In this document: one piece after another, positions 33,198-51,125 of the stretch
Position numbering within the stretch: the stretch's first letter is position 1
Layout of the letters: the number at the start of each line of letters is the position of its first letter
Source of the DNA: Escherichia coli
GTDB lineage: Bacteria; Pseudomonadota; Gammaproteobacteria; Enterobacterales; Enterobacteriaceae
Length of the DNA: 64,000 nucleotides
Strand: one strand, 5' to 3'
NCBI RefSeq assembly: GCF_044324875.1
Contig: NZ_CP172185.1
Program-made: the position numbers and the translations under genes
Notes under the pieces: generated by a model
The model's input: the letters and a program-made list of their open reading frames with translations, nothing else
Told to the model about the DNA's origin: nothing
Database searches by the model: none

Positions 33198-33211
33198 TTA
33201 AGATTATTCCG

Positions 33212-33256
33212 CTGGCGGGTCGATTTATTTACGTAAATCGGCCCGCTTTCTTTTTA
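33212..33256 (+). terminator. Terminator-like hairpin after speA
   Basis: GCGGGTCGATTTA/TAAATCGGCCCGC imperfect stem followed by TTTCTTTTTAT. Confidence 0.45.
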
Positions 33257-33342
33257 TATATTCTTAAAAATAATTTAGCTGCTTTTCTTATTAAATAATC
33301 CCCCTACAATCGCTGCATTAATTAAATACAGAGGGAACGGTT

Positions 33343-34074
33343 ATGAAAAAAGGGAAAGTACGTAGCGCGTTGATAGCATTAGCCGTGCTGCTGGCCGGTT
33401 GTTCCAGTAATGCGCAGTATAATAGCAGTGCATCGGGCAATGTCGGCACCGCCTGGGGTGGGGATGTGCACTCATCGGTTCAGGGCGTATCTGCTGAGCG
33501 AGCCTGGCGCGATCCGGCAGAGATGATCGTTATTAGTTATTCGACTAATGTTCCTTCCGGCTATGACCGCGTTTATAGCATTCGTATTAACGAACTGGAA
33601 TATGCTATTCGCGATGGTAATTTTAATTCTCTACCTATTACGCGTTTTTATGATTCATCCAATAATGAACCACGCTATATTGTCCATGCCAGAGTCGGAA
33701 TGAATTATCAATTATATGTCCGTAATTACAGTCGTAACACCAACTACGAGATCGTTGCTACGGTTGATGGCCTGGATGTGCTGAACGGCAAGCAAGGTTC
33801 GCTGAATAACAACGGCTATATTGTGAATGCCGGAGATTCATTAGCGATTAAAGGATTCCGCAAAGATAAACATACCGAAGCGGCTTTTCAGTTCGCCAAC
33901 GTTGCTGATTCCTACGCAGCCAATTCGGCGCAAGGCGATGTGCGTAATACCGGGGTAATCGGCTTTGCCGCCTTTGAATTACAAGGTCCGACGCAAAACG
34001 CGCTGCCGCCGTGCTCTGGACAAGCCTTTCCGGCAGATAACAATGGCTATGCGCCGCCACCGTGTCGGAAATAG
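33343..34074 (+). CDS. Lipoprotein of unknown function (243 aa)
   Basis: Signal peptide with LAGC lipobox; RBS GAGGGA; lies in the speA–speB spacer where, as I recall, K-12 has no gene. Confidence 0.75.
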   Translation: MKKGKVRSALIALAVLLAGCSSNAQYNSSASGNVGTAWGGDVHSSVQGVSAERAWRDPAEMIVISYSTNVPSGYDRVYSIRINELEYAIRDGNFNSLPITRFYDSSNNEPRYIVHARVGMNYQLYVRNYSRNTNYEIVATVDGLDVLNGKQGSLNNNGYIVNAGDSLAIKGFRKDKHTEAAFQFANVADSYAANSAQGDVRNTGVIGFAAFELQGPTQNALPPCSGQAFPADNNGYAPPPCRK

Positions 34075-34141
34075 CAACCTCGCTTGATGCCTCGTCCATT
34101 TAAGGCGATAATTAGCACAAACTTGTGTTTCGCAAATCCAA

Positions 34142-34182
34142 CCCTTCCTCGTCGGGCCTAACGACGCGGAAGGGTTTTTTTA
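34142..34182 (+). terminator. Intrinsic terminator after the lipoprotein gene, upstream of speB
   Basis: CCCTTCCTCGTCG...CGACGCGGAAGGG hairpin followed by TTTTTTT. Confidence 0.6.
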
Positions 34183-34209
34183 TATCGACTTTGTAATAGG
34201 AGTCCATCC

Positions 34210-35130
34210 ATGAGCACCTTAGGTCATCAATACGATAACTCACTGGTTTCCAACGCCTTTGGTTTTTTACGCCTGCCGATGAACTTCCAGCCATATGACA
34301 GCGATGCTGACTGGGTGATTACTGGCGTGCCGTTCGATATGGCCACTTCTGGTCGTGCGGGGGGACGCCACGGTCCGGCAGCGATCCGTCAGGTTTCGAC
34401 GAATCTGGCCTGGGAACACAATCGCTTCCCGTGGAATTTCGACATGCGTGAACGCCTGAACGTCGTGGACTGCGGCGATCTGGTATATGCCTTCGGAGAT
34501 GCCCGTGAGATGAGCGAGAAGCTGCAGGCGCACGCCGAGAAGCTGCTGGCTGCCGGTAAGCGTATGCTCTCTTTCGGTGGTGACCACTTTGTTACGCTGC
34601 CGCTGCTGCGTGCTCATGCTAAGCATTTCGGCAAAATGGCGCTGGTACACTTTGACGCCCACACCGATACCTACGCGAACGGTTGTGAATTTGACCACGG
34701 CACCATGTTCTATACCGCGCCGAAAGAAGGTCTGATCGACCCGAATCATTCCGTGCAGATTGGTATTCGTACTGAGTTCGATAAAGACAACGGCTTTACC
34801 GTTCTGGACGCCTGCCAGGTGAACGATCGCAGCGTGGATGACGTTATCGCCCAGGTGAAACAGATTGTGGGTGATATGCCGGTTTACCTGACCTTTGATA
34901 TCGACTGCCTGGATCCTGCATTTGCGCCGGGAACCGGTACGCCGGTGATTGGCGGCCTGACCTCCGATCGCGCTATTAAACTGGTACGCGGCCTGAAAGA
35001 TCTCAACATCGTTGGGATGGACGTAGTGGAAGTGGCTCCGGCATACGATCAGTCGGAAATCACCGCTCTGGCTGCGGCGACGCTGGCGCTGGAGATGCTG
35101 TATATTCAGGCAGCGAAAAAGGGCGAGTAA
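34210..35130 (+). CDS. speB: Agmatinase
   Basis: Full-length match to SpeB (306 aa). Confidence 0.97.
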
Positions 35131-35167
35131 GCGCCGGATAAGATGCGTTATGCGTCAAATCCGGCGT
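35131..35167. repeat. REP-like palindrome between convergent speB and loiP
   Basis: GCGCCGGAT...ATCCGGCG stem. Confidence 0.4.
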
Positions 35168-35177
35168 AATAAAATGC

Positions 35178-48715: not shown

Positions 48716-48742
48716 AGGCCCGCTCTGCGGGTCTTTTTTTTG
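48716..48742 (+). terminator. Intrinsic terminator after fbaA
   Basis: CCCGCtctgCGGG hairpin followed by TTTTTTTT. Confidence 0.6.
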
Positions 48743-48756
48743 CTAAAAGAAAAATT

Positions 48757-48857
48757 GCCTGATGCGCTACGCTTATCAGGCCTACACGTATCCTGCAATA
48801 TATTGAATTCGCAGGTTTTTGTAGGCCGGATAAGGCGTTCACGCCGCATCCGGCATG
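48757..48857. repeat. REP/BIME cluster
   Basis: GCCTGATGCGCTACGCTTATCAGGCCTACA and GTAGGCCGGATAAGGCGTTCACGCCGCATCCGGCA units. Confidence 0.6.
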
Positions 48858-48883
48858 ACAAAGCGCACATTGATATCTGTCTG

Positions 48884-48908
48884 AGCCCCGCTCTGCGGGG
48901 ATTTTTTC
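48884..48908 (+). terminator. Second terminator-like hairpin (CCCCGCtctgCGGGG plus T-run)
   Basis: Near-duplicate of the hairpin at 48716-48742, on the other side of the BIME. Confidence 0.5.
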
Positions 48909-49049
48909 GCCAAAAGCAAGGTGATGCAGATGAGAAATCTGTGATCTATTTGGCAAAATTATGCTTTATTGTTTACCCTTGTCAGACTGCCCGTCATAAG
49001 GCGGCGGAGTGTATTTCTCCATTTTGAGTCAGTTGAAAAGGAATATTGA

Positions 49050-49925
49050 ATGGAAGATTTGAATGTTGTCGATAGCATAAACGGCGCGGGAAGCTGGCTG
49101 GTGGCTAACCAGGCGCTGCTGCTAAGTTATGCAGTAAACATCGTGGCGGCACTCGCGATCATCATCGTTGGTTTGATTATCGCGCGGATGATTTCCAACG
49201 CGGTGAATCGCCTGATGATCTCCCGTAAAATCGATGCCACTGTTGCTGATTTTCTTTCTGCGTTAGTCCGTTACGGAATTATCGCCTTTACGCTAATCGC
49301 TGCACTGGGCCGCGTGGGTGTACAAACAGCGTCAGTCATTGCTGTACTCGGTGCCGCAGGCTTAGCGGTTGGTCTGGCTTTGCAGGGGTCACTGTCTAAC
49401 CTGGCCGCTGGCGTGTTACTTGTCATGTTCCGCCCGTTCCGTGCCGGAGAATATGTTGACCTCGGCGGCGTAGCCGGTACTGTGCTGAGTGTGCAGATTT
49501 TCTCCACCACCATGCGTACTGCAGACGGTAAAATTATCGTTATTCCGAACGGTAAAATTATTGCCGGAAATATTATTAACTTCTCCCGCGAGCCAGTTCG
49601 CCGTAACGAATTTATTATTGGCGTGGCGTATGATTCCGATATCGATCAGGTTAAGCAGATCCTGACCAATATTATCCAGTCTGAAGATCGCATTTTGAAA
49701 GATCGCGAAATGACTGTGCGCCTGAATGAACTTGGCGCATCGTCGATTAATTTCGTGGTCCGCGTCTGGAGCAACAGCGGCGATCTGCAAAACGTGTACT
49801 GGGATGTGCTGGAGCGTATTAAACGTGAATTTGATGCCGCCGGTATCAGCTTCCCGTACCCGCAAATGGATGTGAACTTTAAGCGGGTGAAAGAAAATAA
49901 AGAAAACGAAGCGGTAACTCGTTAA
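49050..49925 (+). CDS. mscS: Small-conductance mechanosensitive channel
   Basis: Translation from [17 protein letters not shown] matches MscS; the C-terminal tail differs from my recollection of K-12. Confidence 0.93.
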
Positions 49926-49966
49926 TCATGTAAAGCGCCCATGAAGTTCATGGGCGCACTACCAAT

Positions 49967-51010
49967 TTAACGCATTGTTTCATCGAGTATATTGGCAACT
50001 TTTTGCATGACTTCCCCGGCTTTCTCCACGCCTTCCTTATTTTGCTTTTCTACCCACTGTGCTTGTTCTTGCTGATAACCGATCGCTTTCTGCCAGGCGT
50101 CCAGCCCTGATTTTTTCAGATAGCGAACCTGTGCACCTTCCTGCTCAAGCGTTTTTACCATGCTGATCAGGTTGTTATCTAATGCCTTGCCCAGTGCTTT
50201 CTCGGTTGTAATGGCAGCTCGTTGAATAGCCTCACGATCTCTGTTATCAAGGTTTTCCCACGATTGTTTATTCATTACCAACAGATAAACATGACCAAGC
50301 CAGAGAGAAGGTGAGAGCAACACATTCGGCGCAGCACGTTCAGCATGGATGTCATATCCGCTATCGAGATTGACCATTAAACCATCCAGTTTTCCATCCA
50401 TGAGTGCTTTAGTTATTTGATCATTCCACGGTAAAGTTACGGTTTTTGCCCCCGTATGAGTTAAATAAGCCCGATGCCAGAAACTGGCTGTTCGCCAGGT
50501 GGTTCCCTGAAGCGCAGTCAATTTATCAATGGGCCTGGTAGAGAAAAAGCCTACCGGGTAGCCAAGGAAAAACTGTAAATTCACGATATTGTTACGCTCA
50601 AGTTCAGCGTTAAATTCGGGAATTTCCGCATATACGCGACGAAAGAATTCTACCTGACTGGCTCCATGATCCGGGCCAATAGCAAAGCTCTTGAAGATTT
50701 GATGAAGCGGCAATTGTTTCGCGGTGTATTCCGGCACCACTATACCCATATCAGCTTTGCTGCCATCGCTTATTGTCGTCAGAGCGTCATAGCTGATGGC
50801 GGTTTCACCGTTCCAGTGTGGTTCGATTTTCAAACGCCCCTGCGACTCTTTTTCAATTTCTGCAAAAAATATCTCTTTAATTATTTGTGTACGCATTCCC
50901 CCGTAGGGTTCATGGTCTGTATAACGAAGAATTTTTTCAGCAGCAAAAATCGAGGGAGATAACAGAAGAAATCCTGATAAAAGAAAGGGGAGTAATTGTC
51001 GGTAGTGCAT
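49967..51010 (-). CDS. Orphan periplasmic solute-binding protein, DctP (TRAP) family, 347 aa
   Basis: Signal peptide; aligns by eye with the dctP-like protein at 17494-18480 (WRTAS vs GTRSF, LMDGKLDG vs QQGVVDG, LVMNKQSWENL vs LVISTKTWNKL). No permease genes adjacent. Confidence 0.7.
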   Translation of the reverse strand: MHYRQLLPFLLSGFLLLSPSIFAAEKILRYTDHEPYGGMRTQIIKEIFFAEIEKESQGRLKIEPHWNGETAISYDALTTISDGSKADMGIVVPEYTAKQLPLHQIFKSFAIGPDHGASQVEFFRRVYAEIPEFNAELERNNIVNLQFFLGYPVGFFSTRPIDKLTALQGTTWRTASFWHRAYLTHTGAKTVTLPWNDQITKALMDGKLDGLMVNLDSGYDIHAERAAPNVLLSPSLWLGHVYLLVMNKQSWENLDNRDREAIQRAAITTEKALGKALDNNLISMVKTLEQEGAQVRYLKKSGLDAWQKAIGYQQEQAQWVEKQNKEGVEKAGEVMQKVANILDETMR

Positions 51011-51125
51011 ATCTGTTCCTTCAGTTTATTAATTCAACTTATACTATATTAATTTTATCAATTATCCCTAATGTTATTCCTGCGCTATAGTCTGCGCATC
51101 AGATAATTAGCCCGGAATTAATTAC

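Follow-up and report, generated by a model that had tools for sequence, protein, structure and literature searches.

The metK-yggE interval of Escherichia coli harbors, at three sites, single genes that are missing from strain K-12: a lipoprotein gene between speA and speB (site 1), an SPFH/Band-7 gene between tkt and cmtB (site 2), and an orphan DctP-type gene between mscS and argO (site 3). These three genes are very probably old residents of fixed sites and not insertions, their absences being due to loss or allele swapping. The window, i.e., the whole stretch of DNA that was analyzed, comprises 64,000 nucleotides of contig NZ_CP172185.1 (E. coli, assembly GCF_044324875.1), and the gene order of the interval in E. 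coli is metK-speA-speB-loiP-tkt-cmtBA-yggP-yggF-fumE-yggC-epd-pgk-fbaA-mscS-argO-yggE. The observations that carry this reading are the synteny of the genes, their prevalence, the homology and divergence of the adjoining spacers, and one recombination tract. From the sequence comparisons, a recent insertion into E. coli is excluded, because the same sites and junctions are found in other Escherichia species and in other genera. A first-pass annotation of the window had proposed one shared insertion architecture for the three genes, with the loss of all three in K-12 as the alternative.

Alignment with K-12 MG1655 reveals that the window is colinear with it at 97.5% identity, three segments excepted: 33198-34132 at site 1 (60 bp in K-12), 38207-39448 at site 2 (234 bp in K-12), and 49903-51047 at site 3 (68 bp in K-12). 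Each segment contains one open reading frame (ORF), and the ORF list and the alignment bear out the annotation as to three single ORFs, their places and their absence from K-12. The comparison was extended to 45 species-level loci, obtained from a single genome-collection scan anchored on FumE, and to 5,426 complete RefSeq genomes of E. coli, queried with flank-plus-gene sequences. In both sets the same two core genes bracket the variable content at a site, as in a core-flanked indel. Escherichia, Citrobacter, Klebsiella, Salmonella and Kluyvera each include filled as well as empty states. Across genera, the filled alleles keep their non-coding junctions (speA terminator, tkt/SPFH hairpin and mscS/DctP hairpin), and the empty spacers are short and conserved in Citrobacter, Salmonella diarizonae, Raoultella, Klebsiella, Lelliottia, Enterobacter and Superficieibacter. 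This synteny is a family-level feature and stops there, because the Hafnia DctP homologue is located away from the mscS-argO site and the Erwinia SPFH homologue is not beside tkt. No near-identical foreign donor was found for any of the three genes. Close plasmid copies of the lipoprotein and DctP genes were not found either, the plasmid-labelled matches being chromids or mislabelled chromosomes.

Within the E. coli sample, the flanks are matched at each site in 5,425 of the 5,426 genomes, in filled or empty form. In all, 3,543 genomes possess the full lipoprotein gene (absent from ~35%), 1,818 the SPFH gene (absent from ~66%) and 196 the DctP gene (3.6%; absent from ~96%), and each empty site exhibits one constant span, consistent with a single empty allele each. 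K-12 possesses none of the three genes, SE11 and O157:H7 the lipoprotein gene only, Nissle 1917 and strain 64A:C the lipoprotein and SPFH genes, and strains 10035776-3 and O145 RM8988-C1 all three; SMS-3-5 covers 99% of an 18.3-kb query, which implies all three genes from coverage alone. Among 59 evenly spaced genomes, ~3 carry all three genes, 17 the lipoprotein and SPFH genes, 19 the lipoprotein gene only and 19 none; these proportions reproduce the three totals, with no off-pattern class. Gene presence looks nested across E. coli, as judged from BLAST coverage classes (18.3-kb query, n=59) and not from a phylogeny. The class devoid of the three genes is one K-12-like haplotype, and its isolates are of human, pig, cattle, fish and frog origin; hence the absences are not a laboratory artefact.

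The distribution also bears on the idea that the absences are deletions particular to K-12 or to laboratory strains, the probability of which is next to nil, the prevalence counts already refuting it. K-12 and its laboratory derivatives do lack all three genes, but thousands of natural isolates harbor the same empty alleles, of identical span; SE11 and O157 also possess the empty tkt-cmtB and mscS-argO forms, Nissle the empty mscS-argO form, and a different Escherichia species empty sites 2 and 3. The alternative offered by the first-pass annotation, loss of all three genes in K-12, is essentially right, except that the loss is not specific to K-12 and that the empty alleles are old exchanged haplotypes and not fresh deletions. 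The pattern that the annotation had set against its own insertion proposal, presence in most lineages and absence from the K-12 clade only, is seen for the lipoprotein gene alone.

The spacers adjoining the three genes document the age of the two states. Between the window and K-12, the speB, cmtB and argO spacers retain 66%, 66% and 72% identity, respectively (z = 3.3, 4.7 and 9.7 against shuffles), i.e., the divergence between filled and empty spacers reaches 28-34%, as compared to 2.5% region-wide. Such divergence between forms within one species shows that the alleles are much older than E. coli; with both states present in several genera, each site has two ancient allelic forms. An example of allele exchange is provided by site 2. 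K-12 and Escherichia sp. E1V33 share 95.9% identity (4.06% divergence) over 4.7 kb around this site, yet an 811-bp tract that runs from 33 bp before the end of tkt through the empty spacer to the end of cmtB displays 3 mismatches where ~33 are expected (rough Poisson P ~3e-11, for a tract picked post hoc). This tract points to a recombination event that moved the empty allele between species-level lineages, and to exchange by way of the flanking core genes. Such a tract is found at site 2 only, sites 1 and 3 exhibiting just locally diverged spacers. Site 3 has a block, common to Escherichia and Superficieibacter, in which MscS tail, hairpin and DctP clade move together. The site-2 tract and this site-3 block are both compatible with the replacement of alleles by way of homologous flanking core genes.

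At site 1, homology to K-12 ends at the speA stop codon (33197). It is followed on the plus strand by a stretch (33198-33342) that comprises the speA terminator (33214-33247, 15 pairs) and the AT-rich leader and promoter of the lipoprotein gene; the same terminator stands 3' of speA in the filled alleles of Klebsiella, Salmonella and Kluyvera. The gene itself (33343-34074, plus strand) encodes 243 amino acids that belong to no Pfam or NCBIfam family. The N-terminus, MKKGKVRSALIALAVLLAGC, harbors the lipobox LAGC: the signal peptide reads MKKGKVRSALIALAVLLAG-C and ends in this lipobox, and Cys20 is near-invariant among 35 homologues. By its lipobox with the invariant Cys, the product is a predicted lipoprotein. 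Orthologues directly follow speA in Salmonella enterica (74% identity), Klebsiella (61%), E. albertii (96%) and Escherichia sp. E1V33 (94%), as well as in Kluyvera, Citrobacter FP75 and K. spallanzanii, and identity drops with host distance (96, 94, 75, 74, 72, 61 and 57%). Downstream lies the speB promoter stretch (34075-34132, plus strand; TTGATG-17-GATAAT at 34084-34112), which is common to K-12 and the window at the 66% identity given above, and from 34133 on the identity to K-12 is ~100%. The empty speA-speB spacer measures ~145 bp in Citrobacter, C. braakii and K-12.

Two Kluyvera contigs (L009 and L010) encode an identical SPFH protein and differ reciprocally beside speA: one carries the lipoprotein gene without speB, the other speB without the lipoprotein gene, together with a remnant of the filled-type speA terminator. 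In O145 RM8988-C1, the lipoprotein gene is interrupted by an internal stop.

At site 2, the SPFH gene (38242-39150, minus strand) encodes a 302-residue member of the prohibitin family with an N-terminal membrane anchor, which matches PF01145 over residues 36-211 (E=5.6e-32, 111.6 bits for a cut-off of 23.6). It stands alone, with no paired hflK-hflC operon, and its protein is not an HflC or HflK equivalog, scoring 60.5 bits against a cut-off of 134.4 for the former and 37.3 against 159.4 for the latter. The convergent spacer between tkt and SPFH (38206-38241) contains a bidirectional terminator hairpin, GGGCCGCGAAAGCGGCCC, at 38218-38237, and the segment takes the place of the tkt terminator of K-12. 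This hairpin, GGGCCGCGAAAGCGGCC, is also found in E. albertii, E. whittamii and Kluyvera. SPFH and tkt converge not only in E. albertii, E. whittamii, Escherichia sp. MOD1-EC7003 and SCPM-O-B-8794 but also in Kluyvera and a Klebsiella-like contig, both of which lack the cmt-yggC block and have SPFH between tkt and epd. On the opposite side, the divergent AT-rich SPFH-cmtB spacer (39151-39526), 71% identical between the window and E. albertii, is from ~39225 on the cmtB regulatory spacer, homologous to the tkt-cmtB spacer of K-12, and becomes ~99% identical to it from 39449. The empty tkt-cmtB spacer is 305-350 bp long across genera and harbors the terminator of K-12, GGTCGCTTCGGCGACC.

Several features of this site vary among strains. 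The tkt-SPFH spacer is built of tandem ~175-bp units, each made of a terminator hairpin and a pair of repetitive extragenic palindromic/bacterial interspersed mosaic elements (REP/BIME); the window has no extra unit, Nissle, E. albertii and E. whittamii have one, 10035776-3 has two and MOD1-EC7003 has three. The C-terminal part of SPFH (38374-38493) consists of 33-nt (11-residue) Ala/Glu-rich repeats, and the size range of its homologues, 266 to 311 amino acids, suggests variation in repeat number. The neighboring cmtB (39527-39970) is unusually AT-rich, with a GC content of 40.8% and a third-codon-position GC content (GC3) of 36.5%; its product diverges more within Escherichia (86-95% identity) than any other protein of the block and moves with the site-2 allele. 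E. coli 64A:C, isolated from a gull (NZ_CP134663.1), encodes an SPFH protein identical to that of the window in a region that is only 98% identical and lacks DctP. Over 18 kb, the best matches to the window reach no more than 98.4-98.5% identity. The 4.9-Mb PLSDB record of this strain named "plasmid unnamed1" is evidently its chromosome.

For SPFH at least, an ancient insertion is an unlikely but serious alternative. The order tkt-terminator-cmtB would then be ancestral, a Kluyvera-like tkt-SPFH(-epd) arrangement would have recombined into the Escherichia ancestor after the tkt stop, and the empty allele of K-12 would be the older form, kept or re-imported. All 33 non-Escherichia loci with a cmt block are devoid of SPFH and possess a spacer of the length given above, homologous to that of K-12 and with the same conserved tkt terminator, and Escherichia alone shows SPFH at a place between tkt and cmtB; both observations count against its long residence at this place. 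The tkt-SPFH adjacency, with the same hairpin, of Kluyvera lacking the cmt block is in line with such an insertion, as are the 74%-identity SPFH homologues on 84-131-kb Enterobacter plasmids (no closer plasmid copy was found), the position of the Erwinia homologue, and a relic upstream of SPFH that resembles the K-12-type terminator. This relic is weak, however, and may be due to chance. SPFH is carried by four other Escherichia species-level lineages at 96-99% identity, so its absence is the derived state within E. coli, and the K-12 empty allele, enclosed in a short tract nearly identical to E1V33, looks like a recent import and not like a form retained for long.

At site 3, the variable segment begins within mscS (49903) and opens with an alternative MscS C-terminal tail (to 49925), which differs from the ...KEDKAA of K-12, followed by the convergent mscS/DctP hairpin GCGCCCA...TGGGCGC (49933-49960; the whole junction spans 49903-49966). 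The same tail type and hairpin are found in E. marmotae, E. whittamii, SCPM-O-B-8794 and Superficieibacter. The DctP gene (49967-51010, minus strand) encodes a 347-residue protein of the substrate-binding type of TRAP (tripartite ATP-independent periplasmic) transporters, matching PF03480 (E=2.2e-17, 63.8 bits for a cut-off of 23.4) and NF037995 (54.9 bits for a cut-off of 50), and only distantly related to the TRAP binding proteins of solved structure (best E=8e-11). Neither dctQ nor dctM stands beside it in the window or in any syntenic locus examined, its neighbors being mscS, argO or X309. In 16 non-coli loci from ~10 genera, DctP is enclosed by mscS and argO; these include E. marmotae, E. 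whittamii, SCPM-O-B-8794, Superficieibacter, Enterobacter, K. spallanzanii, C. braakii, Silvania, Huaxiibacter and others.

X309 is a gene of 309 codons located just upstream of DctP, between argO and DctP, whose product matched no Pfam family. Site 3 occurs in four states: X309 and DctP together in E. marmotae, SCPM-O-B-8794 and O145 RM8988-C1, DctP only in the window, X309 only in E. albertii, and neither in K-12. Being four decay states of one unit, they speak for loss rather than gain, and site 3 is a decayed two-gene unit. The divergent DctP-argO spacer of the window (51011-51125), 115 bp long and with conserved argO upstream boxes, bears the scar of the loss of X309, as it fuses the argO-side promoter region straight to the DctP ribosome-binding site. 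The empty mscS-argO spacer measures ~140-155 bp, and a related hairpin, GGCCAG...CTGGCC, is present in E. coli, E1V33 and Raoultella.

The MscS tail (49903-49925) co-varies with the type of the adjacent DctP (L014, L044, L045, L062): Escherichia and Superficieibacter have a long tail, ...E(N/K)KE.EAV..R, and related DctP proteins (73-94% identity), and Citrobacter and Enterobacter have short tails and DctP proteins at 56-61% identity. X309 (L012:9017-9946, L022:17116-18042, L018:19348-20274) is apparently confined to Escherichia among the loci examined. In O145 RM8988-C1 (L063:23981-26405), genes for a tyrosine recombinase and a DEAD/DEAH helicase follow a 5'-truncated X309 and occupy the usual place of argO. 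The argO gene of the window (51126-51760) exhibits a 1-bp deletion near 51398 relative to K-12 and 10035776-3 (AAAACAGC-ATGAGC), which splits it into two ORFs (51126-51401 and 51398-51760) and reflects either a pseudogene or a sequencing error; it is otherwise ~99% identical to that of K-12. A long imported tract at site 3 had been considered from a flank identity of 92-94%, and was rejected since a sliding comparison confines the divergence to ~80 bp of the argO promoter.

It is conceivable, if rather improbable, that the 3.6% of E. coli that bear DctP acquired it anew, through homologous recombination with another Escherichia lineage, instead of having retained it vertically. The rarity of the gene in E. 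coli, the identity of the empty allele in K-12 and Nissle over 236 nt, the cross-species exchange demonstrated at site 2, and the tail-hairpin-DctP haplotype blocks common to Escherichia and Superficieibacter would all suit a regain. On the other hand, the closest non-coli donor, SCPM-O-B-8794, reaches only 94% amino-acid identity (E. whittamii 88%, E. marmotae 82%), identity of the window to K-12 stays at 98-99.5% in the coding flanks (mscS and argO) as far as the boundaries, and E. coli possesses two distinct forms, with and without X309.

The shared layout of the three genes invites another explanation, that of three independent and fairly recent single-gene insertions by one unrecognized process that would have produced a common architecture. 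All three genes are indeed missing from K-12 and slightly low in GC; each lies between a hairpin and an AT-rich stretch (GC 0.34-0.39 at 39000-39750 and 0.40 at 50750-51249), and two left boundaries fall exactly at the stop codon of the neighboring gene. This explanation is nonetheless highly improbable. The same sites and conserved junctions recur in the other Escherichia species and genera described above, the AT-rich stretches are promoters of the neighboring genes that K-12 possesses as well, the DctP allele of the window is a deletion derivative of a two-gene unit, and other variable sites of the stretch hold blocks of five and seven genes. Nor is there a signature of mobile elements. The ORF list and a family profile search yield no transposase ORF in the three segments; the window, colinear with K-12 outside them, has no insertion sequence (IS) or integrase, each segment being a single non-integrase ORF. 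At the three boundaries, neither target-site duplications nor terminal inverted repeats were found, the only short direct or inverted repeats are chance-level 9-12-mers lying off the junctions, and there is no pair of direct repeats of the attachment-site (att) type, the flanks being speA/speB, tkt/cmtB and mscS/argO with no annotated tRNA. Reading of the junctions by eye for deletion microhomology gave nothing convincing.

The architecture itself is the ordinary promoter and terminator layout of a monocistronic gene. Because SPFH and DctP oppose two plus-strand genes, they share a convergent terminator with one and a divergent promoter spacer with the other. The region shows no excess of terminator-like sites (25 observed for 21.9 +/- 5.1 expected). 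The first-pass annotation had placed each gene exactly in an intergenic spacer, which holds for the two left boundaries at stop codons and fails at site 3, where the segment starts inside mscS, and in part at site 2, where the tkt terminator of K-12 is replaced. The terminator on one side is borne out by the strong hairpins at 33214-33247 and 38218-38237, that of site 3 having only a weak T-run. The AT-rich stretch on the other side is real but is not cargo: it corresponds to the speB, cmtB and argO promoter spacers homologous to those of K-12. As for the reported lack of integrases, repeats and IS, the search of the flanks for short direct repeats agrees with it, and it applies to this strain only; relatives display 1-3 REP/BIME units and, in O145 RM8988-C1, an integrase island. 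Finally, a "single ORF of about 1 kb" per site happens to be the look of one strain. With the same syntenic sites and conserved junctions in other species and genera, and no mobile-element signature, the proposal of one shared insertion architecture falls.

Beyond the SPFH-free loci already considered, a number of points weigh against the view that the three genes are old residents. Across genera the empty forms are as widespread as the filled ones, which would suit either direction of change at the deepest level. The GC3 of the three genes (43-46%) is lower than that of their neighbors (53-63%). The identity of DctP to that of the window is higher in Superficieibacter (73-81%) than in Citrobacter (56-59%), and MscS gives the opposite order, Citrobacter being closer; judging from this incongruence, some transfer between genera has apparently occurred at site 3. 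The FumE-anchored scan did not recover E. fergusonii and E. ruysiae, complete RefSeq genomes are a biased sample of E. coli, and the nestedness of gene presence is read from coverage classes. The named strains belong to phylogroups A (K-12), B1 (SE11), E (O157), B2 (Nissle) and F (SMS-3-5).

Long residence of the three genes, with loss or swapping of alleles, can be pictured as follows. Each gene would form a transcription unit by itself, complete with promoter and terminator. Each site exists in two ancient forms, "filled" with the gene or "empty" with a short conserved spacer, both present in several genera, and the filled forms would be the state inherited by E. coli, as suggested by their presence in other Escherichia species. 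The losses would then have reached three breadths, ~96% of genomes for DctP, ~66% for SPFH, and ~35% for the lipoprotein gene, the latter through a single K-12-like haplotype. Loss or regain may proceed by double homologous recombination in the conserved flanking genes or by simple deletion, with no mobile element involved, and the sharp boundaries at stop codons would represent the ends of coding constraint or of recombination tracts, not insertion points. The direction of each change, and recombination as the cause of each individual loss, are what we infer from the observations.

Further variable sites are found in the same stretch. The yggC-epd spacer (44882-45165; 287 bp in the window and in K-12) is the empty form of a fourth one, at which a 3.4-kb block of five genes, encoding a PCC-domain protein plus an energy-coupling factor (ECF) transporter, is present in Nissle, SE11, O157, O145 and O111, and also in E. 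albertii, E. marmotae, several Citrobacter and Superficieibacter. In the genomes with this block, the YggC protein is only 84-86% identical to that of the window. In the window, 47 bp separate speB from loiP (35131-35177); at this position, E. coli O111:H8 TW05614 and other genomes have a seven-gene D-glucosaminate operon (dagR, phosphotransferase system IIABCD, dgaE and dagF; L067:2890-10206). The yggF gene, a glpX paralogue, is fragmented in Nissle 1917 (L015:30014-30329), and SE11 carries IS621 between fbaA and mscS (L016:17947-18927).

A further-reaching and distinctly doubtful proposal is that metK-yggE carries at least 4-5 ancient dimorphic haplotypes (gene or no gene) that predate E. 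coli, are kept in Escherichia by selection and not by drift, and move among Escherichia species through homologous recombination of short tracts, DctP (with X309) acting as a partner of the ArgP-controlled argO promoter. If true, DctP would not be a stranded transporter fragment but a functional partner of the divergent argO promoter.

K-12 represents the reduced state of this stretch, without the lipoprotein, SPFH and DctP genes and the five-gene ECF-transporter block, and "absent from K-12" should not be taken as "inserted". The region offers a clean worked example of old filled and empty alleles swapped through flanking homology and with no mobile elements, one cross-species tract included. 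It also draws attention to three conserved and unstudied proteins that are out of reach of K-12-based genetics: an all-beta lipoprotein without a family, a fifth SPFH protein of E. coli, and an orphan DctP always accompanied by argO or mscS. The known K-12 relatives of the latter two are the SPFH proteins HflK/HflC, QmcA and YqiK, and the TRAP binding protein YiaO. With these SPFH proteins, the site-2 product shares PF01145 and a weak match to the HflC and HflK models, and differs in scoring far below the equivalog cut-offs of the two models; with TRAP transporters (DctPQM), the site-3 gene shares a DctP-family protein, and differs in having no adjacent DctQ or DctM.

As for the event itself, K-12 and O157:H7 were reportedly compared by Perna et al. 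in 2001, with a descriptive catalogue of small strain-specific "O-islands" and "K-islands" that gives no direction. The lipoprotein segment resembles these, being <1 kb long, located between conserved genes and present in O157:H7 and not in K-12; the difference is that outgroups here mark the segment as ancestral and K-12 as derived. With genomic islands and with IS or transposon cargo, the three segments have in common that they are strain-variable, slightly low in GC and intergenic. In contrast to these, the window lacks integrase, att site, tRNA target, transposase, terminal inverted repeats and duplication, and the content is orthologous and syntenic. The closest parallel is established for E. 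coli and other species: genes come and go at a given pair of core genes through double homologous recombination in their flanks, independently of mobile elements (Touchon et al. 2009, PMC2617782; Oliveira et al. 2017, PMC5635113). The present sites resemble such core-flanked indels by the same two core genes on either side, the lack of tRNA, integrase and IS, the one recombination tract, and the several alternative contents within one stretch. Whereas the hotspots of those studies hold many genes and show rapid turnover of unrelated cargo, two old states with orthologous content across genera are found here: each of the three sites holds one orthologous cargo or none, site 3 adding X309 and an integrase island seen in one strain. 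The three sites are therefore dimorphic loci more than hotspots, and the kind of event they represent is already known, the observation being real but ordinary.

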